Assembly (NCBI GenBank): GCA_023898425.1
Contig: CP060222.1
Span: 930,001-962,000 of the forward strand
DNA: 32,000 bases
Reading direction: 5' to 3'
DNA from: Candidatus Saccharimonadota bacterium
GTDB taxonomy: Bacteria > Patescibacteriota > Patescibacteriia > 2-12-FULL-60-25
A program made the translations under genes and the position numbers. Of the stretch, positions 2,666 to 25,856 are shown piece by piece. The notes under the pieces were generated by a model. The model had not been told where the DNA came from, searched no databases, and was given only the letters and a program-made list of their open reading frames with translations. Each line of letters starts with the position of its first letter. Position 1 is the stretch's first letter.

Positions 2666-3799
2666 ATGCATATAGCTTGTACCCAAGAAAACCTCTTACA
2701 AGGTTTATCACTCGTGAGTCATATCACGGCCAAACAAACAAACCTTCCTATCCTAGGAAATGTCTTATTAAAGACTGAGGGAGGTGGTTTAAAATTATTC
2801 TCTACAAATCTTGAGATGGCGATTAGCGCTCAAGTTCGTGGAGTTGTTGAAGCACAAGGAGAATTTACCGTCCCTGCAAAACTTCTACAGGATTATATTT
2901 CGCTCCTCCCTTCGGGTAAGGTGGAGCTTATTGTGAAGGATGATATTTTAGAGGTACGAGCCCATGGTTCATCAACGACGATGAGGGGGATGCCTAGCTC
3001 TGAGTTTCCACTTATCCCGAAACTCGCTTTAGATGCTGGCTACCAGATCAATGCCGAAGCGCTCAAACTCGCCATTTCGCAAACAGTCTTTGCTGTATCA
3101 GCTTCGGAGGCTCGCCCAGAGCTTGGTGGTGTCGCTTGTTTCTTTAATAGCGAGAACGAAGAAGAGAAAGTGGTTTTTGCTGCCACAGATTCTTATCGTT
3201 TGTCAGAGCGTATTTTTCATATCGAAGGTGGTAGTAAAGAAGCGAAGCACTGTATTGTCCCTTCTCGAGCAATGCAAGAAATGGGACGTATTATCTCTGC
3301 GTATAAAGACGATGTTGATATGCCTGAAACAATCGACTGGTCTATTACAGAAAGTCAGATGGTGATGACCTACGGTAAAGTTGAGCTTATCTCGAGGCTT
3401 ATCGAAGGGAGTTTTCCTCCCTACCGACAAATCATGCCTTCTGAAAGTAAAACAAAATGTATTGTTGCTAAGTCAGAGCTTCAAAAAGCGATTAAAGCTG
3501 CTTCATTATTTGCTCGCCAAGGGGTATTTGATATCCATGTAGAGATCGATGCAACCAAAGGTATGACAATTTCGTCCTCTGATACTGGGACAGGAGCTCA
3601 TAGCTCGACCCTGAAGGCCGATATAAGCGGAGAATCAGTAAACAAGGTAATACTCAACTACAAATACTTCTCAGATGGTCTGAGCGTCCTCACAGGCGAT
3701 CAAGTAGAATTTCAATGTATTGATGGAATGAATCCCGTTACACTCTCAAGTAAAGGCACCGAAGGATTTAGTTATATCATCATGCCTATTCGCTCATAA
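2666..3799 (+). CDS. dnaN: DNA polymerase III beta sliding clamp
   Basis: 377-aa ORF directly after dnaA. The length and sequence pattern fit the beta clamp (LLQGLSLVSHI ... PILGNVLL ... ATDSYRLSE ... EGSFPPYRQIMP). Confidence 0.95.
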   Translation: MHIACTQENLLQGLSLVSHITAKQTNLPILGNVLLKTEGGGLKLFSTNLEMAISAQVRGVVEAQGEFTVPAKLLQDYISLLPSGKVELIVKDDILEVRAHGSSTTMRGMPSSEFPLIPKLALDAGYQINAEALKLAISQTVFAVSASEARPELGGVACFFNSENEEEKVVFAATDSYRLSERIFHIEGGSKEAKHCIVPSRAMQEMGRIISAYKDDVDMPETIDWSITESQMVMTYGKVELISRLIEGSFPPYRQIMPSESKTKCIVAKSELQKAIKAASLFARQGVFDIHVEIDATKGMTISSSDTGTGAHSSTLKADISGESVNKVILNYKYFSDGLSVLTGDQVEFQCIDGMNPVTLSSKGTEGFSYIIMPIRS

Positions 3800-3851
3800 T
3801 GAGCGATATTGATGAGGATAAGTTATCCACTTATACATAAAAAGTTATACA

Positions 3852-3875
3852 CAAAGCCCCCAATTGGGGGCTTTG
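3852..3875. terminator. hairpin between convergent dnaN and the PBP gene (possible bidirectional terminator)
   Basis: caaagccccc aatt gggggctttg forms a perfect 10-bp stem with a GC core. It sits between the two convergent stop codons and is followed by ttatt. Confidence 0.55.
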
Positions 3876-3878
3876 TTA

Positions 3879-6719
3879 TTACGGGGTTATTTTTAGTTGT
3901 TCGGTTACTAAGTCTATAGTTTCACCATCTTTTTGTGTCGCTTCTGCTTCTACCGTGTACTCGCCGGTAGCTGGTCCAGCAGAGAGCGTGAAACCCGTCT
4001 GCTCTTCTGTAGGAAATTGTATCGACCCTACAAGAATACGTTCACTGGTGTCTTTGTTAACTAGAGTGACGGTTATTCTTTGATAGCGCGTTGGTTGATC
4101 CGAGTGAATGATAAATGATCTCGGAAACGAAGACCTAGACCATCGTTCATTTCGTTGTGGTGAAAGAAGATTAAAGCCAGAGAGTGAGGCATCGGGAGCT
4201 GCCGTAAGATTGATTTGAATAACCTTTTCATCAAAGGCGCCCAACTCGTCTTCTGCACGTATCTTTAGTGTTCTGTAACCAGATTCAATGCTATTTGGGA
4301 TTGTTGCGTAAATAGTCCAAGGGTAATTGTTCGCTGTACCAATAAGGATGTCATCTATTGTGACGGATACGGTTTTTATTGTTCTTGGTGATTCTACCGA
4401 GGTTTGTATCGTAAGATTTCGACTCGATATAGTTGTATTATCTTGAGGTGATTGAATGGTGAGATTTGGTTTATTTTCTGGCGTAAATAGATCGTCGCTT
4501 TCTGTTGGTGCTGTTGATGTCGCCATCCATTGTGTCTTTTGTACGTAGGACTGAACACCTGCCTCCCAGTTAACAAATTGCGGATCAGCGGCAGGATTAA
4601 CAGGGTTCGGACCTAGTGGATTGTCTTTATCAATGTAATAAAGAATTGTATGCGCTTCATGTACTAAGCGTTCTTCAACAAGATCAGGAGGGGTAAATTC
4701 GGTTGCGAGTTTATTGTTTAATTTATTTACCTTAACAAGTCTCTCTACGTTTTGACCAAGGATGGCGAGTTTATCGGTATTCGATGGTGCTGGTTTGATA
4801 AACGTTTCTTTTTCCATTCCTTGTGTAGCGCGACGCATATAGTTTTGCCAGATAGGTGCAGCGATAATGGAGCCGTCAGCACCACTCTTCATTTCTTTTC
4901 CGTCGGTATTACCTACCCAGACAACGCTTACGAGGTTTGGTGTAAATCCTGCTGTCCACGCATCTTTATTGTTATTTGTTGTACCAGTTTTAGCTGCCAC
5001 TTGGCGGTCCGGTAAGGTGAGGCTGTTTTTGCTACCAAAGATAAATGTACGAGCATTATTATCGGACATAATATCTGTAAGCAGTCTTGCAACCTGTGGT
5101 TCGACAACCTGTTTTGCTTCGGGGTCTTTCCATTCTTCAAGAACAGTACCATCAGGCTTTTCTACCTTAAGAATGGCAGCGATAGGTTTTTGTTTGCCGT
5201 CTTGAGCAAATGCCGCAAAGGCATTTGCATGCTCAAGAGCCGTAACAGTACCGCCACCAAGTCCAATTGATAAGCCAAAATCAGAACGGTTTTCAAAGGT
5301 GGTATAACCAAGTTTTTCTGCAAAATCGATAACACCGCCTACGCCAACAAGATAGGTTGCTTTTACCGCAGGGATATTAAGTGAACCAGCTAAAGCAGAC
5401 CGTAAGGTAACAGGACCATGCTCTCTAAAGTCATAGTTTTTTGGTTCATAGTTTCCAACGTCTGTTTTAAACGTCGTAAGAACATCCCAGATTTTTGTTT
5501 CTGGAAGGTAGCCTTTCTCAAAAGCTGCAGCATAAATAATAGGTTTAAAGCTAGAACCTGGTTGGCGATTACGACTCAATGTTACGTTTACTTCACCTTG
5601 AATACTTTTATCAAAGTAATCTTTAGAACCAACCATGCTCATGATTTGACCTGTTTTAGGGTCAAGAGCGATAAGTGCTGCATTGCTAAAGTTATAACGA
5701 GCGCCACGACTCTCTACGCCTTTTACAATTTCATCTTCGGCGATTTTTTGTTTATCGTAATCGATCGTTGTGATGACTTTAAGTCCACCGCGTTCTACGG
5801 TGCTGATTCCATATCGTTCAACAAGCTCACCTTTTACATACATCACAAAGTGTGGAGCTTCGATATTGCCAACGGTACGAGGTTTAAGTTTTTTTAATGT
5901 ATCAACAGCAACGTTAGCATCATATTCTTCTTGGTTGATGTAATCTTGTTCTTTCATTTTTTCTAAAACAAGATGTTGTCTATTTTTTAGCGCCTCACGC
6001 TGATCGCCGTAGTAACCGTTGCCATAAGGGTTAAAGTATTCAGGACGCTGAATAATCGCAGCAAGAAAAGCAGATTCATCAATCGTTAAGTCTTTTGCGG
6101 ATTTGCCAAAATATGATTGTGAAGCAGACTCAATACCATAGAGGTTTGAGCCAAACGGAATTTCGTTAAGATAGAGCTGAATGATTTGTTCTTTGCTTAA
6201 CTTGCGTTCGATTTGTAATGAGATGATAACTTCTTTAATTTTTCTGATCCACGAACGTTCGGTAGTAAGAATGGCATTACGTACGAGTTGTTGCGTAAGT
6301 GTTGAAGTACCAGAAATGCGTTGGCCTTTAAGAGTGTTTACGATAACAGCACGCGCTAAGCCAAACCAGTAGATACCATTATGTTCATAAAAGCCACGAT
6401 CTTCGATAGAGATAACAGCTTGATACATTGATTTTGGAATATCTTCATAAGCAATCAATGTTCGTTTTTCATCACCGTGAATTTCGTATAAAAGGTGGGT
6501 TCCGGTGCGATCATAGATCTGCGTGGACTGGGCAACCTCTCTTGTAATCAAAGAATTAGGGTCCGGAAGGTCGCGACTTACCCAAGCAGCGAAAACCGTG
6601 AAAACAAATAATGAAAGCGCGAATAATCCAAGCGCAATAAGGCTAAGAGGTCTGATAATCCGCCAAAACTTGGTCCATTGGCGTCCGGAGGGCTTTTTTA
6701 CGTTCATTTCATTTGGCAT
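3879..6719 (-). CDS. PBP1A-family bifunctional peptidoglycan glycosyltransferase/transpeptidase with a long C-terminal extension
   Basis: 946-aa ORF with an N-terminal membrane anchor. GT51 motifs are present (IEDRGFYEHNG, GTSTLTQQLVRN). Transpeptidase motifs are SSFKP (SxxK), SLN and KTGTT. About 300 residues follow the transpeptidase core. Confidence 0.93.
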   Translation of the reverse strand: MPNEMNVKKPSGRQWTKFWRIIRPLSLIALGLFALSLFVFTVFAAWVSRDLPDPNSLITREVAQSTQIYDRTGTHLLYEIHGDEKRTLIAYEDIPKSMYQAVISIEDRGFYEHNGIYWFGLARAVIVNTLKGQRISGTSTLTQQLVRNAILTTERSWIRKIKEVIISLQIERKLSKEQIIQLYLNEIPFGSNLYGIESASQSYFGKSAKDLTIDESAFLAAIIQRPEYFNPYGNGYYGDQREALKNRQHLVLEKMKEQDYINQEEYDANVAVDTLKKLKPRTVGNIEAPHFVMYVKGELVERYGISTVERGGLKVITTIDYDKQKIAEDEIVKGVESRGARYNFSNAALIALDPKTGQIMSMVGSKDYFDKSIQGEVNVTLSRNRQPGSSFKPIIYAAAFEKGYLPETKIWDVLTTFKTDVGNYEPKNYDFREHGPVTLRSALAGSLNIPAVKATYLVGVGGVIDFAEKLGYTTFENRSDFGLSIGLGGGTVTALEHANAFAAFAQDGKQKPIAAILKVEKPDGTVLEEWKDPEAKQVVEPQVARLLTDIMSDNNARTFIFGSKNSLTLPDRQVAAKTGTTNNNKDAWTAGFTPNLVSVVWVGNTDGKEMKSGADGSIIAAPIWQNYMRRATQGMEKETFIKPAPSNTDKLAILGQNVERLVKVNKLNNKLATEFTPPDLVEERLVHEAHTILYYIDKDNPLGPNPVNPAADPQFVNWEAGVQSYVQKTQWMATSTAPTESDDLFTPENKPNLTIQSPQDNTTISSRNLTIQTSVESPRTIKTVSVTIDDILIGTANNYPWTIYATIPNSIESGYRTLKIRAEDELGAFDEKVIQINLTAAPDASLSGFNLLSPQRNERWSRSSFPRSFIIHSDQPTRYQRITVTLVNKDTSERILVGSIQFPTEEQTGFTLSAGPATGEYTVEAEATQKDGETIDLVTEQLKITP

Positions 6720-7564: not shown

Positions 7565-7841
7565 CCGTAAAACAGCTACGCTGTCACGGGGCGGTGCCCC
7601 GATCCCGTGCTTTATAGCTGTTTTTTAAAAGACTCGCAAGATACAAAAACGGCGCATCAGGGTTTAATCCCAGGTGCACCGTTTAAGGCTCGATTCCACA
7701 AGCGAAGTAAGTATATCAAAATCTTGTAAAAGCACGCAAGTTTTCGGGGATGGAATGTGGATAACTTATTATAGTAGGTTTTATATTATTTTTCGTTAGA
7801 GAAACGTTTCTTTTTTTCTCCGCAAACGGCACACTACCTTT

Positions 7842-10523
7842 ATGAGACCAAAGTTATTTTTACTTGATGCAAATGCGCTTTTGCATCGATCGTGGCATGC
7901 AATACGCCCACTCACGAGTCCGGATGGACGCACAGTGAACTGTGTTTACGGTATGACGATGAGCGTGATGAAGCTTATTGAACGCTATAAGCCGGATGCA
8001 TTCGCTGCTTGTTGGGATACAGAAGCACCTACATTTCGACACGAAGCTTATAAAGAATACAAAGGACATCGTAAAGAAAAAGAACAAGATCTTTACGATC
8101 AAATCCCTTGGGTCAAAGAAGGTTTTGATGCATTAGGAATCCCCTCGCTTTTTCTTGATGGATATGAAGCCGATGATTTGCTCGGTACGATTGGTGCACG
8201 TGCGGTCAAAGAAGGTTTTGATGTTACGATTATTACTGGTGATCGTGATGCGCTTCAATTAGTAAGACCACACCTCGAAGTGATGTTATTTGTAAAAGGT
8301 GTTACCGAAGTGAAGATTGTTAATGAAAAGGTTCTGTTAGAAGAATATGGATTTACACCAGAGCAATTTATAGATTTTAAAGCGATTCAAGGTGATGCAT
8401 CAGATAATATCCCAGGAATACGTGGTATTGGTGAAGTTGGTGCAAAATCTCTTTTGAAACATTTTGGTTCTATGGATGGAATCATTAAGGCAGCCCATGA
8501 TCCAATATCAGAGATGCGCGCTAAAAATAGAGAAGCGATACTAAGCGCCGAGAAAGAGATCCCAGCTATTTTGGACCTTGTGAGAATTCGTCTCGATGTT
8601 CCTTATAAATGGGATATTGATAAACATCTATTGCTAAGCAAAAATGCAGAAGCAAGAACTTTTTTGCTATCAATGGGATTTGTTTCTTTGTTAAAACGCC
8701 TTGATGATTTAGAAGGTAAAGGTACTTCGTCTATTAAAGCTGATTCAGAAAAAAAGAAAAAACCATCTAAATCTGTTTTAGCATATGATGCGATGAATGA
8801 ATCTTCTAACGAAGAAAAATCTTTTAAAGCAGAGACAAAAGGTGGTTTATCGATGAATGAAATAAAGAGTCGTTTACAAAAAGCAAAACATATTGCCCTT
8901 GGTATTGTGTGGGAAGATGCATCTATCCCAGCGGTAAAAGCAAAAGCGATGGCATTGTTTTGTACGGATGGTGAATCTACCTTTTTACTACAAGCGAATG
9001 AATTAAAACAAGACCCAGCGTTTTTTTCTGCTTTGGATAAAAAGGTTATTGCTCATGATACAAAAGCCGTGATGCATGGACTACGCATGCTTGGTGTACA
9101 AAATCCTCAATGGGATTTTGATACAATGCTAGCAGCTTATGTGCTGAATGCTGGTGAACGCTCTCATGATTTAAGAACCGTTGCGTTGGCTTATGCGGAT
9201 ATTACTTTAGCAACCGAACCTACAATTGCAGAACAAGTATTAGCCGCCTGGCATTGCACTGAGCCTCTAAAAAAAGCGTTAAAAAATGAGAAATTAACGG
9301 AGGTTTTTGAACGTTTTGAGCTACCTTTGGCGCCTGTGCTTTGTAAGATGGAGGCTGAAGGTATTGAGATAGATACGGTCTATCTACATACGTTGGCAAA
9401 AGAATTACGTACGGAGCAAGAAAAACTCCTTAAGTTGATGCAAAGTATTGCAGGTACAGACTTAAACCCAGCATCACCTGCGCAACTATCACATGTATTG
9501 TTTGAATTACTAGCATTACCAACAAAGGGTATTAAAAAAGGAAAGACAGGATTTTCTACAGCTGCAAGTGAATTAGAAAAGCTTCGAGGGTCACACGAAA
9601 TTATTGAATACATAGAAAACTATCGCGAGGTATCAAAACTGCTTTCAACTTACGTCGAAGTTATCCCTACGCTTGTTGATAAGCATCATCGTTTACACAC
9701 AACCTTTCAACAGGCTGTTGCTGCAACGGGGCGTTTATCTTCTGCAGACCCTAATGTTCAAAACATTCCAATTCGTACCGAACTTGGTCGAAAGGTACGT
9801 ACAGCATTTAAAGCAAAAGAAGGTTTTGAGCTTATTGCATGTGATTATTCGCAAATCGAATTACGTTTAATTGCTTCTCTCGCACAAGATAAACAAATGA
9901 TTGAAGCCTTTAAAAAAGGGTTAGATATTCACACGGCTACCGCTTCGAGAATATGGAATATCCCACTTGATGAGGTTACAAAAGAGCAAAGGCGCTCTGC
10001 AAAGGCTATTAACTTTGGAATTATCTATGGTCAAGGCCCAGTAGGTTTATCGCAAACAGCAGGAATCACGTTTGCAGAAGCTAAACAGTTTATTGCAAAT
10101 TATTTTGAAGCATATCCAGGTATTAAAAAATACTTGGATGAAACAAAGGTGTTAGCAAAGAAGCAGGGTTATATTGAAACAATTTATGGACGTCGTCGTC
10201 CCCTACCTGAGCTAGAATCAGATATGGCGATGTTGCGTGCGTCCGGCGAACGAATGGCAATTAATATGCCTGTACAAGGTACAGCTGCAGATATTATTAA
10301 GTTAGCGATGTTAGAAGTAGATAAAAAATTACCAACGGTATCACCAAAAGCACGTATGCTTTTACAGGTGCACGATGAATTAGTATTTGAAGTGCCTAAA
10401 AACGAACGCGAGCAGGTAGCAACCTTTGTTGTTGATATTATGGAGCATGTTGCAGATGTTGGTGTCCCACTTCTTGTTGAGTCAAAGTATGGCAAGAACT
10501 GGGAAGAGATGATAAAGCTATAA
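7842..10523 (+). CDS. polA: DNA polymerase I
   Basis: 893-aa ORF. The N-terminal 5'-3' exonuclease/FEN region includes LLDANALLHRSWHA and GDASDNIPGIRGIGEVGA. The family A polymerase motifs are DYSQIELRL, RRSAKAINFGIIYG and QVHDELVFE. I could not see a canonical DxE ExoI motif in the middle domain by eye. Confidence 0.95.
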   Translation: MRPKLFLLDANALLHRSWHAIRPLTSPDGRTVNCVYGMTMSVMKLIERYKPDAFAACWDTEAPTFRHEAYKEYKGHRKEKEQDLYDQIPWVKEGFDALGIPSLFLDGYEADDLLGTIGARAVKEGFDVTIITGDRDALQLVRPHLEVMLFVKGVTEVKIVNEKVLLEEYGFTPEQFIDFKAIQGDASDNIPGIRGIGEVGAKSLLKHFGSMDGIIKAAHDPISEMRAKNREAILSAEKEIPAILDLVRIRLDVPYKWDIDKHLLLSKNAEARTFLLSMGFVSLLKRLDDLEGKGTSSIKADSEKKKKPSKSVLAYDAMNESSNEEKSFKAETKGGLSMNEIKSRLQKAKHIALGIVWEDASIPAVKAKAMALFCTDGESTFLLQANELKQDPAFFSALDKKVIAHDTKAVMHGLRMLGVQNPQWDFDTMLAAYVLNAGERSHDLRTVALAYADITLATEPTIAEQVLAAWHCTEPLKKALKNEKLTEVFERFELPLAPVLCKMEAEGIEIDTVYLHTLAKELRTEQEKLLKLMQSIAGTDLNPASPAQLSHVLFELLALPTKGIKKGKTGFSTAASELEKLRGSHEIIEYIENYREVSKLLSTYVEVIPTLVDKHHRLHTTFQQAVAATGRLSSADPNVQNIPIRTELGRKVRTAFKAKEGFELIACDYSQIELRLIASLAQDKQMIEAFKKGLDIHTATASRIWNIPLDEVTKEQRRSAKAINFGIIYGQGPVGLSQTAGITFAEAKQFIANYFEAYPGIKKYLDETKVLAKKQGYIETIYGRRRPLPELESDMAMLRASGERMAINMPVQGTAADIIKLAMLEVDKKLPTVSPKARMLLQVHDELVFEVPKNEREQVATFVVDIMEHVADVGVPLLVESKYGKNWEEMIKL

Positions 10524-10524
10524 T

Positions 10525-11355
10525 ATGCTTATTATTTGCTCAGGAGCTGATAGTTATAAGGCTTTACAAAAGGCTATTGAATTAGAGCATGCCTATAAAA
10601 CAAAACATGATCCAAGCGGACTTTCAATTGAGCGCTGTGAGCCGGGTCAATCCCCTGTCCAGTTTTTGCAAGAACGCTTAGGAGTGGGGTCATTGTTTGC
10701 AAAAAGATCGTTCTTAAGAGTTTCTGGGTTATTAAAAGTAAAAGCATCAGAAAAGAAAATTCTTAAAAAACTATTAGATCATCCAGATGAGATGACGATT
10801 ATTGTTGATCTTGAAGAAGGTTCATTAAAAATGTCTGACGTTGATGGTTTTACAGAAGCTGCAGGTATTGTCCGGTATGACTTTCCAGAAACCAAAGGTG
10901 CGGTTTTTGCAAAGTGGCTTACAGAATATGCATCAACCATTAACGTAGATGATAAGGAGCTAATAAAAAAGATTTCACGAATGTATGATGGTGACTCATG
11001 GGGCGCAATCAACGCTCTCATCCAGGCTTCATGTGGGTATCCTCTTGATGAGATCACACAAGAAGCAGACTCAACCTATCAATATGTTGACGCTGTCTTA
11101 AGAAACCAAAAACAACGGTATCAATACGATGCCTATAAGCAATTTGATAGCGCGACACTGGCGCTTATACTCCAACAAGCCTCTCAAGCAGAACGAATAA
11201 AAAATAATGACAGCACGGGTATTCATCCGTTTGTTGCAAGTAAGTTAAAAACTATCGGTGACTCCTCTGCTCTTGCTTTGATATCAGCGATAGAATCTCA
11301 TGCCTTGGTAAGATCAGGTCATGCGACTGACACCGAAGTAAATACGATGTTTTGA
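10525..11355 (+). CDS. hypothetical protein, possibly a short DNA polymerase III delta (HolA-like) subunit
   Basis: 276-aa ORF whose start lies 1 nt after the polA stop. The N-terminus (MLIICSGADSYKALQKAIELE) resembles the start of delta subunits. The assignment rests on context and weak pattern only. Confidence 0.35.
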   Translation: MLIICSGADSYKALQKAIELEHAYKTKHDPSGLSIERCEPGQSPVQFLQERLGVGSLFAKRSFLRVSGLLKVKASEKKILKKLLDHPDEMTIIVDLEEGSLKMSDVDGFTEAAGIVRYDFPETKGAVFAKWLTEYASTINVDDKELIKKISRMYDGDSWGAINALIQASCGYPLDEITQEADSTYQYVDAVLRNQKQRYQYDAYKQFDSATLALILQQASQAERIKNNDSTGIHPFVASKLKTIGDSSALALISAIESHALVRSGHATDTEVNTMF

Positions 11356-11394: not shown

Positions 11395-11652
11395 TTACTT
11401 TGTTGCAACGGATTTCATTGCAGCGCTTACTAAGCGACGTGCTTTGTTCTTATGGATAACAAAGTTCTTGCTAGCTTTTGCGCTAGCGCTTTGAAGTTTG
11501 ACCACAAGTTCTTTTGTTTGTGGTTCACCTTTCTTAACAGCTTCTTTAAGCTGTTTAGTAAGGCTTTTTACATGGGTCTTCATGCGGGCGTTGCGCACTG
11601 CGCGACGAGCGTTTTTACGAAGATCCTTAATGGCTGCATGCTTTTGTGGCAT
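11395..11652 (-). CDS. rpsT: 30S ribosomal protein S20
   Basis: 85-aa basic ORF with an S20-typical N-terminus (MPQKHAAIKDLRKNARRAVRNARMKTHVKS). Confidence 0.93.
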   Translation of the reverse strand: MPQKHAAIKDLRKNARRAVRNARMKTHVKSLTKQLKEAVKKGEPQTKELVVKLQSASAKASKNFVIHKNKARRLVSAAMKSVATK

Positions 11653-11924: not shown

Positions 11925-11999
11925 GTTTCTGTAGTTCAATGGATAGAACAAGGGACTCCTAAGCCCTAGATCGTGGTTCGACTCCACGCAGAAACACCA
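11925..11999 (+). tRNA. tRNA-Arg (CCU), CCA encoded
   Basis: GTTTCTG TA GTTC AATGGATA GAAC A AGGGA CTCCTAA GCCCT ... GTGG TTCGACT CCAC GCAGAAAC A CCA. This is a cloverleaf with anticodon CCT preceded by T33. There is one A-G mismatch at the bottom of the anticodon stem. Confidence 0.85.
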
Positions 12000-12163: not shown

Positions 12164-12496
12164 ATGGGTATGGAAACATATGCTCAACGACCGGTGATGA
12201 GAGACATGTCTCAACATAAGTCAGGTTCTTCTACAGGTGATCATCGAGAAAAAATAATGGCTCTCGATGGACCAAAGTATCCTGATATGAAGATAGGTAC
12301 ACCATATGATGAATTCGATGATCTTACAGATGCTAAATATGGTGAAGAAAGGCTTTTGAAGCCTGCTAAAACCCCAAAAGAAGAGAGAACCCGCGCGAAA
12401 TATATTCGTGACAACAAAGGGGTTATGAAAGAAATAAAAATAACTCCGTACAGAAGCCATCTCGACAAGCCTCAAAAACCAAGACAGTTAAACTAA
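12164..12496 (+). CDS. hypothetical small charged protein
   Basis: 110-aa ORF, lysine/glutamate/proline-rich, with no hydrophobic segment and no motif I recognise. It lies between a good promoter and the terminator at 12781-12819. Confidence 0.45.
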   Translation: MGMETYAQRPVMRDMSQHKSGSSTGDHREKIMALDGPKYPDMKIGTPYDEFDDLTDAKYGEERLLKPAKTPKEERTRAKYIRDNKGVMKEIKITPYRSHLDKPQKPRQLN

Positions 12497-12514
12497 TACT
12501 AAATACAAAAAGTT

Positions 12515-12649
12515 ATGCCACAAGGATCATTTCATGGCGCAGAATCACTTCACTTGCAGCCAGCTAAAAACATAGCAGGTACAACTGTGCCCGCAGATAA
12601 GGCTATTGAGGATTATCATAAACATCACGGAGATCCATCTAAGGCCTGA
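12515..12649 (+). CDS. very small hypothetical ORF (44 aa), possibly the 5' part of a frameshifted about 85-aa gene ending at 12773
   Basis: My translation is MPQGSFHGAESLHLQPAKNIAGTTVPADKAIEDYHKHHGDPSKA, ending at the stop. A second frame is open from 12576 to 12773 (…DTESDFDPRKLTMVGEGIGKGPNHTFYKVRNFKGKVFAKRF). Both pieces are below the ORF-track size cutoff. Confidence 0.2.
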   Translation: MPQGSFHGAESLHLQPAKNIAGTTVPADKAIEDYHKHHGDPSKA

Positions 12650-12780
12650 TACAGAAAGTGATTTTGACCCACGTAAGTTAACAATGGTGGGTGAGGGTAT
12701 CGGAAAAGGTCCAAACCATACCTTTTATAAGGTAAGAAATTTTAAAGGTAAGGTATTCGCTAAGCGATTCTAGTGGTAGA

Positions 12781-12819
12781 TAAAAAAACAACCGACATGC
12801 TTGTCCGGTTGTTTTTTTG
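12781..12819 (+). terminator. rho-independent terminator
   Basis: aaaaaaaacaaccgaca tgct tgtccggttgtttttttg: a GC-containing stem with one bulge and a T7 run. Confidence 0.6.
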
Positions 12820-13043
12820 TTTTACATGAAACTATCCACAGGTATTTTTGTGTTTCACAAGAAACAAATTCTTTGCAGGTATAAGCTGTGTATACCGAGC
12901 TAAATACAGTCTTAAGTACCATGCTATCTGTGGATATTCATATGATTACGATATACACATGTTGATATCTAGTATATTTTGATCAAGATTTACAATGAAA
13001 GAGGTATTCAGATGTTGGTAAGTACAGAAAAAGTGTATAAACA

Positions 13044-13069
13044 TGTGGATAATGTTTCATATGAAACAA
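13044..13069 (+). repeat. 26-bp direct repeat, copy 1 (DnaA box + 14-bp palindrome)
   Basis: tgtggataatgtttcatatgaaacaa is identical to 13116-13141. It contains TGTGGATAA immediately followed by the perfect palindrome gtttcatatgaaac. Confidence 0.9.
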
Positions 13070-13115
13070 TTTTCATCACTACCAACTGTTGATAAGCATG
13101 TGTACAAATTTAAGC

Positions 13116-13141
13116 TGTGGATAATGTTTCATATGAAACAA
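13116..13141 (+). repeat. 26-bp direct repeat, copy 2
   Basis: A perfect copy of 13044-13069, with starts 72 bp apart. Confidence 0.9.
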
Positions 13142-13590
13142 AAGTTTATATACAAACTTCACGTATTCAGAGCTGGGTTGGTTTTCATATCACATCTACA
13201 AGCGGGTCTTGTTTTCTTTATCAACCGAAATACTGGGTTGTAATCAATCTTATGGATATATGTGTTTGTATTCCCAATCTTTGTTTGTTTGAATATTCGT
13301 TTAAGTTGCTGGATATCAAAAAAAAATAGAACGACCAGACTCGAGTGTTGAGTCTGGCCGTGAGGTGATCATGAAGCGTTGGTAGAACCGATGCCTCAAT
13401 TGCGCTGAGCACGTTCCGTGAGTGGAGGTGCGGCTGTGAGTTCTAGAAGTGTATAACAAGGAGAATAATTGTCAACAAATATACAGTGTGTCTTTGCATA
13501 TAATATTGTACGACGCTAGTAAACTGTGCTAAATAGAGCGAAATTTTTATGAATGGTTAAAAATACTATATAATAGATATATCTTTAACT

Positions 13591-14505
13591 ATGCGTTTTT
13601 TGCATTATTCTCTGAGTGCTCTTGTGAGCGTACTCCTTACCGTCTCGCCAGTCATGGCGATGACGAGTACGAACTATCAAATCAATTGGGATGATATGGC
13701 TGCGGGAGGCGCAGATTTTGGATCCAGTGCCAATTATCTTGTGCATGATACTCTTGGTGATGTTGCTGCAGGCGCTGGTTCTAGTGTGAATTATCGATTA
13801 TCAGCCGGATATCGTATACCAGAAACAACAAATATCTTGGGTTATGAGGTAAAAGCACGATCCGCAAGTCCTTCGACGTCGTGGTCTTCGTTTAATGGAG
13901 TTGATCAGGTGACAGTTGCTTCAGCTGCTGGTTTTTCGATAGGGGATCTTATTGCGGTAATAGAAGATATCGGGCTATCACAACTTGTTGCTATCGGTAG
14001 AATCTCAAATATCGCAGGCACTTTAATAACAGTTGATCGATTTGACGGTGATTCAGGTATTATCTCAGTAGTTTCAGCTGGTGGAGATGATAGAGTTTAT
14101 CGTTTATCTGCAGCATCTCTCGCCTTGGGTTCGGTAACGGATTCTACAGCCGCGGTTGGTGTAGTTGGTACGAATGTGATTTCAAGTGTTCCTACGGGTT
14201 ATTCGCTTTATGTACACGGTAATCATTTAATGCAAAGTGGTGCTGAAACAATCGACGAAGTATTGGATGGGTCAGTCACCGTAGGTTCCGAAGAATTTGG
14301 CGCTAGTGTAACGGGTCCAGGGGCAATAAATGCGGGTACCGATCTTGGAGTCACAACAACATTACGTTTAGTGCAAACAAATGCCGTCGCTACAGGTGGT
14401 GAGGGTGATAAACTTGGTTTCTCGTATAAGCTTACCGTTGCACCAGGTACGGTAAACGGTAGTTATACTCAAGATACGTACTATACCTTGGTAGCAAATT
14501 ACTAG
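13591..14505 (+). CDS. secreted hypothetical protein (signal peptide; Gly/Ser/Thr-rich beta-type sequence)
   Basis: 304-aa ORF with an N-terminal signal-like segment (MRFLHYSLSALVSVLLTVSPVMA). The motif S-x-NY-x-(L/I/V) recurs (TSTNYQI, SSANYLV, SSVNYRL). There is no further hydrophobic anchor. It is the first gene of a tightly packed three-gene unit. Confidence 0.8.
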   Translation: MRFLHYSLSALVSVLLTVSPVMAMTSTNYQINWDDMAAGGADFGSSANYLVHDTLGDVAAGAGSSVNYRLSAGYRIPETTNILGYEVKARSASPSTSWSSFNGVDQVTVASAAGFSIGDLIAVIEDIGLSQLVAIGRISNIAGTLITVDRFDGDSGIISVVSAGGDDRVYRLSAASLALGSVTDSTAAVGVVGTNVISSVPTGYSLYVHGNHLMQSGAETIDEVLDGSVTVGSEEFGASVTGPGAINAGTDLGVTTTLRLVQTNAVATGGEGDKLGFSYKLTVAPGTVNGSYTQDTYYTLVANY

Positions 14506-25786: not shown

Positions 25787-25819
25787 AAACAATAAACAGT
25801 TTATACACATTTTATCAAC

Positions 25820-25856
25820 AAGCCCCGTATGATGCGAAAAATGCACATACGGGGCT
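25820..25856 (+). terminator. terminator hairpin after the giant gene
   Basis: aagccccgtatg (25820-25831), a 13-nt loop, then catacggggctt (25845-25856), followed by tgttt. Confidence 0.6.

Follow-up and report, generated by a model that had tools for sequence, protein, structure and literature searches.

Could a second cluster of DnaA boxes, lying outside the dnaA–dnaN spacer, mark an origin of replication, or does it serve another function? The question is raised by the longest gene-free stretch (12774–13590, 817 bp) in a 32-kb segment of DNA from a Patescibacteria-like bacterium, the whole of which we call the window. An initial annotation had rightly singled out this spacer as the largest non-coding stretch, and proposed that it could be the true or a second origin, or a replication-coupled switch for the surface operon that begins at 13591. 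Our comparisons suggest a different answer. The region 12818–13140 is probably (at about 0.75) an origin-proximal chromosome centromere with four putative parS sites and embedded DnaA boxes, a reading drawn from the sequence.

Results

DnaA boxes and palindromes in a gene-free spacer

Towards the left end of the spacer lies a bidirectional intrinsic terminator hairpin (12782–12818; A-run, stem, T-run), which closes the upstream small-ORF unit. The arms of its inverted repeat (I8) are 13 nt long and 100% complementary, and its T-run shares bases with the left arm of the first palindrome. Within the species, the spacer is 95.7–100% identical, a variation too low to inform, and both the spacer and the surface operon are common to all strains compared. 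Divergence among the strains begins at 12167, which raised the idea of an element integrated at tRNA-Arg; this was rejected, as the allelic segment comprises only the small-ORF part (12167–12780). The species is present in digester and sludge metagenomes. Small ORFs running across the repeats (e.g., 13043–13243) were set aside as repeat artefacts. Rfam returned two tRNAs and nothing more at the gathering thresholds, and permissive E-values over 12600–13700 yielded chance-level matches only, from terminators and hairpins.

Allowing at most one mismatch, we found five DnaA boxes in 300 bp of the spacer, whereas none of 300 composition-preserving shuffles exceeded three per 300-bp window. Two of the boxes are perfect (TGTGGATAA, at 13044–13052 and 13116–13124, both on the minus strand). 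The other three agree at 8/9 positions: CTATCCACA at 12832–12840 on the plus strand, and TGTGGATAT at 12929–12937 and TGTTGATAA at 13087–13095 on the minus strand. About nine further boxes, with 7/9 agreement, are spread over 12887–13469. The second DnaA-box cluster described in the initial annotation is therefore real, and its rating as equal to the dnaA–dnaN spacer is fair, the counts at the same threshold being five boxes (two perfect) and six (one perfect), respectively. The spacer has the DnaA-box cluster expected of a bacterial oriC; it also has the high-affinity cluster outside oriC that characterises loci of the datA or B. subtilis DBC type.

Interleaved with these boxes are four TGTTTC-N4-GAAACA palindromes, and the presence of all four, together with the five boxes, inside 323 bp is far above chance. 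A search of the window for GTTTC-N4-GAAAC with at most one mismatch returned eight matches against 1.33 expected, among them those at 12819, 12852, 13054 and 13126. What are these palindromes? Across phyla, the centromere site parS has the consensus TGTTNCACGTGAAACA (PMC7022226). Compared with the parS sequence TGTTTCACGTGAAACA, the window palindromes agree at 13–14 of 16 positions: parS-1 (TGTTTTACATGAAACT, 12818–12833) at 13, and parS-2 (TGTTTCACAAGAAACA, 12851–12866), parS-3 and parS-4 (both TGTTTCATATGAAACA, 13053–13068 and 13125–13140) at 14, so that the four clustered sites carry 3, 2, 2 and 2 mismatches. The arms are intact in parS-2 and parS-3, and the central CG of the latter has become TA. 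At up to three mismatches, TGTTTCACGTGAAACA occurs five times in the 32 kb, compared with 0.23 expected, and four of these occurrences fall in the 323 bp. As judged by this agreement, the palindromes are variant parS, the putative ParB-binding centromere site.

The central ACGT core of parS is absent from the four sites, which read ACAT, ACAA, ATAT and ATAT at this position. The central CG is nearly invariant in characterised systems, so that the CATATG-centred sites are candidate ParB-binding sites.

The sites parS-3 and parS-4 sit in two identical copies of the 26-mer TGTGGATAATGTTTCATATGAAACAA (13044–13069 and 13116–13141, 72 bp apart), the first 9 nt of each copy being a perfect DnaA box; no further copy was found in the window, even with three mismatches. 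This direct repeat had been reported in the initial annotation, and the coordinates given there for all elements agree with ours. The repeat had been interpreted as a composite site for DnaA plus a second dimeric factor. That reading is supported: the palindrome is a putative dimer-binding site, set directly against DnaA boxes; its identity as parS had gone unrecognised. A related palindrome had been noted upstream of polA, and GAAACGTTTC is indeed present there (7801–7810), together with a perfect DnaA box at 7756, but it is a different motif, with the half-sites in the opposite order (GAAAC|GTTTC).

Canonical parS at the orthologous position in relatives

Relatives were traced via a 276-aa gene beside polA, and a scan of genome contigs with PolA as the query led to a sister species, whose contig ends inside polA, and to distant phyla, short of the locus itself. 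In three more distant relatives, the gene order is kept: polA, the 276-aa gene, rpsT, tRNA-Arg and a gap before the surface operon. We observed perfect copies of TGTTTCACGTGAAACA in the orthologous gap, one in L079, four within 1 kb in L080/L081 (all perfect), and five in L126, where a sixth site with one mismatch completes a 1.5-kb group directly upstream of the homologous surface operon. All 11 parS sites of these more distant relatives have the ACGT centre (0/44 centre changes). LexA-type sites (GAAC-N4-GTTC), NrdR, Fur, CcpA and the HP1021 box (TGTT[TA]C[TA]) had also been considered for the palindromes and were dropped once these canonical orthologues were found.

Two species of the window's own genus, L077 and L083, share the terminator, with an identical core (CCGACATGCTTGTCCGG) and an outer stem in which both strands differ and pairing is kept. 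Directly after it lies the orthologue of parS-1 (TGTTTCGTGTGAAACG in L077 and TGTTTCATGTGAAACA in L083), and further sites are present in both species (TGTTTCGTATGAAACA in L077 and TGTTTCACATGAAACA in L083). The sites of these two species, with the cores ATGT, ACAT, GTGT and GTAT, are intermediate in sequence, standing between canonical parS and the CATATG form of the window. Taken over nine parS sites of the genus, departures from the consensus number 5/108 in the arms and 14/36 in the centre. The arms are conserved in the genus, and the core has moved away from ACGT (to ACAT, ATGT or ATAT).

When the whole spacer was compared with the relatives by BLAST, the only parts that aligned were the terminator with parS-1 and its box, and the box/parS composites; within the interior of the spacer, the island around the parS-3 composite was the only part aligned to L077, L083 and L080. 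The orthologous place in L077 holds 11 DnaA boxes in 380 bp. DnaA boxes are few at this locus in the relatives whose parS is canonical, which indicates that the box cluster is a genus-level addition, and its function may be separable from that of parS.

A DnaA box abuts parS with fixed polarity

At three of the four parS sites in the window, a DnaA box either abuts the dyad at 0 bp (parS-3 and parS-4) or overlaps it by 2 bp (parS-1); parS-2 has no abutting box. The box at 12929 is followed by TCATATGA, which we regard as a decayed remnant of such a composite. DnaA boxes thus lie inside the parS region, as in Caulobacter, and this arrangement is conserved in L077, L083 and L126. The polarity is always parS and then TTATCCACA, and the spacings lie between an overlap of 2 bp and a gap of 2 bp (−2, 0 and 0 in the window; 0 and +1 in L077; −2 and +1 in L083; +2 in L126). 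The orthologue of the parS-1 box is a perfect TTATCCACA at a 0-bp gap in L077 and CAATCCACA (7/9) in L083. The sites parS-3 and parS-4 are a recent duplication and so do not count as independent evidence on spacing.

Could the composite exist beyond this group? A metagenome scan for it returned 110 stretches, which form 47 sequence clusters and range from 22 to 71% in GC content. After one ascertained hit per cluster had been discarded, 13 of 71 further metagenome parS sites had an abutting box, compared with about 0.33 expected from control spacings, an excess that is estimated from ascertained loci; the opposite polarity at 0–2 bp occurred at none of these parS sites. Composites make up 4/4 parS sites in L139, 3/5 in L128 and 3/4 in L120, the flanks of which are unrelated; loci of the L128/L139 type lie downstream of gyrA. 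The composite is accordingly found again in unrelated metagenomic lineages. The free position of the box was G in 61/97 metagenome matches, but other TGTGNATAA sites there were equally biased and provide no clean control. Box offsets in unselected flanks were left aside because of repeated loci in the set.

The unwinding module lies in the dnaA–dnaN spacer

Where, then, is the origin? Both strands of the window were scanned for a DnaA box followed, after no more than 16 bp, by three or more [C/T]TA trios and an AT-rich tract (criteria from PMC8287927). The only module that combines tandem boxes, a GC cluster and DnaA-trios lies at 2574–2616 on the plus strand, inside the dnaA–dnaN spacer, and consists of the boxes CTATCCACA and CTGTCCACA, CCCC, the trios TTA CTA TTA CTA CTG and an AT-rich tract. 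It is 100% conserved in the sister species L007, whereas the rest of the dnaA–dnaN spacer diverges. By the same criteria, no unwinding module was found in 12.8–13.5 kb or in L077. Furthermore, the cumulative GC skew over 41 kb of local sequence reaches its minimum at about 2753, in the dnaA–dnaN spacer and not at the cluster; over the same 41 kb, there is no skew switch at 12.8–13.3 kb, with no inflection and a positive skew on both sides. The earlier interpretation therefore stands as regards a second DnaA-box cluster and falls as regards a true or second origin.

[quoted passage not shown]

Discussion

How would a centromere of this kind work? The comparisons show what the sites are, how far they exceed chance, their orthology to canonical parS, the conservation of the composite and an oriC that lies elsewhere; beyond this, we infer ParB binding, DnaA binding and any coupling of the two along the following lines. 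By analogy with the known ParABS family, ParB dimers would form CTP-dependent clamps on loading at the TGTTTC...GAAACA palindromes and would spread over the flanking 10–15 kb, including oriC, and the resulting partition complex would recruit SMC, together with ParA if the latter is present. Constraint on the four central parS bases would have been lifted in this genus, with the arms fixed. The boxes would be bound by domain IV of DnaA and, because they lie at 0 bp or with a 2-bp overlap and in a fixed polarity, DnaA and ParB would have to touch or exclude each other. Initiator occupancy could in this way be coupled to the partition complex, either when it assembles or when it is released, by analogy with Caulobacter, where centromere movement is licensed by DnaA bound inside parS; we regard such coupling, with modest confidence, as the most likely consequence. 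As a by-product, the boxes may serve as an origin-proximal DnaA sink, like the DnaA-box clusters of B. subtilis. Neither the 41 kb of the species nor the relatives' loci that were read yielded a ParB, ParA or SMC gene, the search for ParB being made with Pfam on the main window ORFs, the relatives' neighbouring ORFs and unannotated ORFs upstream of dnaA. Literature searches on ParB in the candidate phyla radiation/Patescibacteria yielded nothing usable.

A bolder proposal, which we put forward only tentatively, is that the parS-then-TTATCCACA unit (−2 to +2 bp) might be a dedicated, widely recurring cis-module where DnaA and the ParB clamp-loader meet on 25 bp, either arisen independently or retained in Patescibacteria-like, Firmicutes-like and other lineages, with a ParB in this genus that no longer reads the central CG. 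If so, DnaA could control the loading of ParB, block its sliding on one side only, or be brought to the ParB/ParA compartment and regulated in it.

Could the boxes instead be the main purpose of the locus? It might be primarily a DnaA-titration or control locus, like E. coli datA and the B. subtilis clusters, with palindromes that are decaying relics of a centromere and no longer bound by ParB. Dense, high-affinity boxes outside yet close to oriC, expanded in the genus, would fit such a locus, as would the drifted central bases and the lack of a ParB gene in the 41 kb and relatives' loci scanned; in B. subtilis, such clusters hold back initiation, as stated in a passage of PMC3245932. A relic, on the other hand, would decay evenly, whereas the arms of the genus sites are constrained relative to their centres, the changes at sites 3 and 4 keep the dyad symmetry, and footprinting picks out no islands but the palindromes together with their boxes. 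The fixed polarity and the narrow spacing would also be left unexplained. We consider this explanation unlikely; titration is nevertheless compatible with a centromere, as an extra role of the boxes, and a datA/DBC-like side function is possible.

It is quite improbable that the adjacency of box and palindrome is functionless, a product of the recent 26-bp duplication and of chance in a box-rich region. The identity of sites 3 and 4, only 72 bp apart, the lack of a box at parS-2 and a spacing that is not strictly fixed would be in keeping with chance. However, the same adjacency and polarity are found at orthologous and non-orthologous sites of L077, L083 and L126, in flanks that are otherwise unalignable, and they are repeated in unrelated lineages.

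We find it very unlikely that the palindromes are operators of an ordinary dimeric transcription factor, with DnaA as co-regulator, that acts on the surface operon (13591 onwards) or on a small RNA in the spacer. The region is upstream of that operon, a promoter-like match (9/12) overlaps parS-1 and its box, and ParB and DnaA can repress locally in other bacteria, according to passages of PMC5521831 and PMC13438810. The sites are nevertheless 450–770 bp from the operon start, with a minus-strand promoter/terminator pair (13475 to 13331) in between; sigma-70-like promoters in the region number 9 versus 8.8 in shuffles; and the motif is that of pan-bacterial parS, perfect in relatives. Because of this distance, the cluster is unlikely to act chiefly as the suggested replication-coupled switch of that operon.

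It is barely credible that the cluster is the true oriC or the second half of a bipartite oriC, leaving the dnaA–dnaN boxes for dnaA autoregulation alone: the box counts here and in L077 and the size of the spacer would suit an origin, but the sole module with at least three trios within 16 bp of a box is the one at 2574–2616, perfectly conserved in L007, the skew minimum lies near it, and relatives with canonical parS here have almost no boxes.

The putative centromere is thus a parS locus of an ordinary kind; what sets it apart is the conserved fusion of most copies to a DnaA site. What had appeared to be a possible second origin can now be read as an identified centromere, and both oriC and parS are placed in an uncultivated Patescibacteria-like lineage in which neither had been studied. 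To our knowledge, it is essentially in Caulobacter that experiments have revealed crosstalk of DnaA with the centromere. A fixed-polarity sequence module that recurs in unrelated bacteria would be a testable handle on the coupling of initiation and segregation, and the central CG, lost specifically in this genus while the arms were kept, would offer a natural experiment on ParB–parS specificity.

Comparison with known systems

Like the chromosomal ParABS parS sites of B. subtilis, C. glutamicum, P. aeruginosa and other bacteria, the sites described here are 16-bp dyads with TGTTTC/GAAACA arms, form a group of several copies no more than about 10 kb from oriC, and have perfect canonical counterparts at the same syntenic position in relatives. 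Unlike those systems, the central CG is replaced in the window's genus (CATATG, CACAAG, TACATG), and the sites form one 323-bp intergenic cluster instead of being scattered within genes.

Mera, Kalogeraki and Shapiro (2014) reportedly identified a DnaA binding site inside the parS region of Caulobacter crescentus. In the passages of PMC4468827 and PMC6399470 that deal with this bacterium, parS lies within 8 kb of Cori, with a DnaA site needed for partitioning. In both cases, a centromere with DnaA boxes in the parS region lies within kilobases of the origin (8 kb in Caulobacter, 10 kb in the window), and Caulobacter provides the precedent for DnaA at a centromere independent of initiation. The boxes here differ in that they abut or overlap the parS dyad at 3/4 sites with fixed polarity, in an unrelated, Patescibacteria-like lineage.

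The B. subtilis DBCs, as presented in part of PMC3245932, and E. coli datA resemble the cluster in having consensus or near-consensus boxes near but outside oriC, which could titrate or inactivate DnaA; unlike them, the cluster here is interleaved with parS, and it is limited to the window's genus, the wider family being without it. Finally, as at rctA/parS2 of Vibrio cholerae chromosome 2 (PMC3688505, PMC6399470), where ParB and the initiator compete or communicate, a centromere site lies among initiator-binding sites, although there RctB takes the place of DnaA as initiator and the replicon derives from a plasmid.

The Repeat and Its Gene Setting

The 26-bp direct repeat TGTGGATAATGTTTCATATGAAACAA occurs in exactly two perfect copies, at 13044 and 13116, as the initial annotation had stated, and no third copy with up to three mismatches was found in the window. 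Four palindromes of the type TGTTTC-N4-GAAACA (at 12818, 12851, 13053, and 13125, named parS-1 to parS-4 below) lie in the same cluster as five DnaA boxes with at most one mismatch (12832, 12929, 13044, 13087, and 13116). The window contains 31 such boxes compared with 9 expected. Five boxes in 300 bp is a genuine second cluster, as more than three were seen in 0 of 300 composition-preserving shuffles; the count in the dnaA-dnaN spacer reaches 6.

The genes leading to the cluster are dnaA (883-2286), dnaN (2666-3799), a class-A PBP gene (3879-6719, minus strand), tRNA-Cys, polA (7842-10523), an unannotated 276-aa gene (10525-11355), rpsT (11395-11652, minus strand), tRNA-Arg (11925-11999), and several small ORFs (12164-12773). 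Next come a strong bidirectional terminator (12782-12818), 817 bp of gene-free DNA, and, from 13591, an operon of large surface-type proteins. Exact protein matches assign the sequence to an uncultivated species that has also been assembled as GCA_020429715.1, among others. The closest named PolA among species representatives, at 41% identity, is that of a Candidatus Magasanikbacteria MAG, so the organism probably belongs to the Patescibacteria/CPR.

Several other features were observed in this setting. Between tRNA-Arg and the terminator, the stretch with the small ORFs (12167-12780) exists in two allelic forms among strains of a single species, encoding either 110-aa and 69-aa ORFs or a single 164-aa ORF; the two forms are mostly unalignable, while the DNA on both sides is 96-100% identical, and none of the ORFs of either allele had a Pfam match. 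The 17-nt core of the terminator hairpin, CCGACATGCTTGTCCGG, is identical in the window and in the same-genus species L077 (6388-6412) and L083 (2182-2206), whereas the outer stem is AACCG/CGGTT in the window and AGCCG/CGGCT in the other two, both strands changing so that pairing is kept. Such conservation exceeds the needs of a plain terminator. The same spacer also contains a candidate small RNA of ~120 nt on the minus strand (13321-13441), with a sigma-70-like promoter sequence (10/12; 13475..13448), a strong terminator (13361..13331), and a fold z-score of -4.1. It had no Rfam match, and it is kept among strains of the species, whereas in L077, L083, and the more distant relative L126 it is missing or cannot be aligned.

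Further groups of DnaA boxes lie directly 3' of dnaN (three with at most one mismatch, 3813-3853) and directly 3' of a 2305-aa gene (two, 25801-25820). The near-DnaA-box 9-mer TTATCCACT, followed 81 bp on by TCATCCACA, occurs both in the 2305-aa gene (22948/23029) and in a 314-aa gene (27894/27975), which suggests a repeated coding module shared by surface-protein genes. The perfect box upstream of polA (7756-7764) is kept in the sister species (L007, 9913), and L077 has a group of three boxes (200-243) at about the corresponding position; the polA region may be under DnaA control. The palindrome reported beside this box, GAAACGTTTC, is indeed present at 7801-7810, but it is not the same motif as that of the cluster, as its half-sites are reversed, and it is not parS.

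Location of the Origin

Could the second cluster be a second origin, as had been proposed? This reading is rejected on three independent grounds, since the unwinding module, its conservation, and the local GC skew all point to the dnaA-dnaN spacer. The module (2574-2616), which fits published criteria (PMC8287927), consists of the tandem boxes CTATCCACA and CTGTCCACA (2574-2591), a CCCC cluster, five DnaA-trios (TTA CTA TTA CTA CTG; bottom strand 3'-AAT GAT AAT GAT GAC-5'), and an AT-rich tract. When both strands of the 32 kb were scanned for a box with up to two mismatches and, no more than 16 bp after it, three or more [C/T]TA trios, this spacer gave the single site; no module was found in the second cluster, nor in L077 despite its eleven boxes. 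The sister species (L007, 4706-4750; PolA 81%) has the core TATCCACACTGTCCACACCCCTTACTATTACTA with 100% identity, whereas other parts of the spacer have diverged. Finally, the local cumulative GC skew, computed on the window plus 9.1 kb of upstream DNA from contig L001, has its minimum at ~2753 and rises thereafter, with positive skew to either side of 12.8-13.3 kb. The module at 2574-2616 pins the origin in this Patescibacteria-like genome.

Identity of the Palindromes

The palindrome TGTTTCATATGAAACA differs from TGTTTCACGTGAAACA, a parS sequence, only in its two central bases. parS is the ParB-binding centromere, near-invariant over bacterial phyla, with the consensus TGTTNCACGTGAAACA (PMC7022226). 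Five matches to this consensus with up to three mismatches occur in the window compared with 0.23 expected, and four of the five are the cluster palindromes; in parS-3 and parS-4, the central change is symmetric and the dyad is preserved.

Relatives were found through the 276-aa gene, nine homologues of which led to the retrieval of contigs. In three more distant relatives, the order polA, 276-aa gene, rpsT, tRNA-Arg is kept, and the next gap contains canonical parS: one perfect site in L079 (276-aa protein 32% identical to that of the window), four perfect sites in L080/L081 (also 32%), all inside ~1 kb of a gene-free stretch of 1.9 kb, and five perfect sites plus one with a single mismatch in 1.5 kb in L126 (PolA C-terminal region 61%, S20 49%), where the array lies directly 5' of the homologous surface operon. 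In the two closer relatives, the shared terminator is followed by intermediate forms, TGTTTCATGTGAAACA and TGTTTCACATGAAACA in L083 (72% identity) and TGTTTCGTGTGAAACG and TGTTTCGTATGAAACA in L077 (63%). In the genus (nine sites), the 12 arm positions depart from the consensus in 5 of 108 cells and the four central positions in 14 of 36, compared with 0 of 44 central cells in the 11 sites of the more distant relatives. This comparison is decisive: given these canonical and intermediate sites and the arm-versus-centre counts, the cluster palindromes are orthologues of canonical parS; in the genus, the arms are still under selection and the central ACGT is released.

No ParB gene was found in the 41 kb examined for this species, nor in the loci of its relatives. 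Since relatives carry perfect four- and six-copy parS arrays, ParB is almost certainly present in the family; that of this genus would bind CATATG-centred sites.

DnaA Box-parS Composites

The most striking feature of the cluster is, as the initial annotation had noted, that the boxes adjoin the palindromes, with gaps (negative for overlap) of -2 at parS-1, 0 at parS-3, and 0 at parS-4; parS-2 has no abutting box. The gaps are 0 and +1 bp in L077, -2 (a 7/9 box) and +1 bp in L083, and +2 bp at one site in L126, and all composites of these four loci have the polarity 5'-parS-TTATCCACA-3'. When the whole spacer was compared with those of the relatives by BLAST, only the terminator with parS-1 and its box, and the box/parS composites, aligned; these composites are the phylogenetic footprints of the spacer. 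Ten contigs of the species agree in the spacer at 95.7-100% identity, and strain data therefore add little. DnaA boxes are few in the relatives with canonical parS and many in the window, L083, and L077 (11 with at most one mismatch in 380 bp); the box cluster is thus a genus-level elaboration.

We then scanned metagenomes for TGTGNATAA-N(0-2)-TGTTTC-N4-GAAACA. The scan matched 110 stretches, and 80 loci were retrieved, ranging in GC from 22 to 71% and forming 47 sequence clusters. In 97 matches, the free parS centre was ACGT in 73, ACAT in 11, ATGT in 3, and ATAT in 2, the last being the window's own species. The free box position was G in 61 of the 97, a bias also seen at the other TGTGNATAA sites of these loci, which lie near the origin. 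As this bias is shared and a raw count needs the total of parS sites in the collection, one ascertained composite per cluster was discarded and the remaining parS sites were examined. An abutting box was found at 13 of these 71 sites, whereas control spacings of 3-68 bp predict ~0.33, and none had a box at 0-2 bp in the opposite polarity. The excess stems from eight loci, among them L139 (4 of 4 parS sites), L128 (3 of 5), and L120 (3 of 4), whose flanks are unrelated. This is good, though ascertainment-limited, evidence that the pairing of a DnaA box with parS recurs as a module, rather than being an accident of the window.

The arrays of L128 (8060-8940) and L139 (2540-3460), loci unrelated to that of the window, are AT-rich, with parS abutting perfect TTATCCACA boxes and, in the same spacer, interspersed palindromes ATTTCCCGGGAAAT resembling Noc-binding sites, which makes these loci Firmicutes-like. 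The L128 array lies downstream of the gyrA-like gene in the order dnaA, dnaN, recF-like, gyrB-like, gyrA-like, the genes beyond dnaA and dnaN being assigned from ORF sizes and order. Both arrays adjoin an SRP-RNA-like sequence and a tadA-like ORF, identified by eye. In one metagenomic sequence cluster with a GC of 40-46% (L087, L093, L118, L122, L124, L129, L140, L160, and L161), which includes a human-skin sample, an ACAT-centred parS likewise lies beside a perfect DnaA box, so the window's genus is not alone in having lost the central CpG.

Discussion

A parS cluster lies 10.2 kb from oriC, with consensus DnaA boxes fused to parS in a conserved polarity. From its sequence, the locus is best read as a chromosomal centromere in which the parS core is relaxed and DnaA boxes are fused to parS. 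The earlier suggestion of a composite site for DnaA and a dimeric factor is upheld, the factor being, by prediction, ParB at parS. The main value of the locus lies in the apparent recurrence of the fused module among unrelated bacteria.

From parS, where they nucleate, ParB dimers close as CTP clamps and then spread over some 10-15 kb; DnaA binds its boxes through domain IV. Spreading over such a distance from the window's cluster would cover oriC. With a gap of 0 bp or an overlap of 2 bp, DnaA and ParB would have to interact or exclude each other, so that DnaA occupancy could affect ParB. Such occupancy, high when DnaA is abundant, could gate ParB loading, stop ParB sliding on one side, or draw DnaA into the ParB/ParA compartment.

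Among the closest precedents is Caulobacter, in which the start of centromere movement, independently of replication, depends on a DnaA site inside parS (reviewed in PMC6399470 and PMC4468827). Another is V. cholerae chromosome 2, the parS2 of which is embedded in initiator-binding DNA, and PMC7022226 reports direct contacts of ParB with DnaA in V. cholerae and D. radiodurans. In B. subtilis, oriC-proximal box clusters act as a DnaA sink (PMC3245932); a like role is compatible with the window's cluster and may coexist with a role as a centromere.
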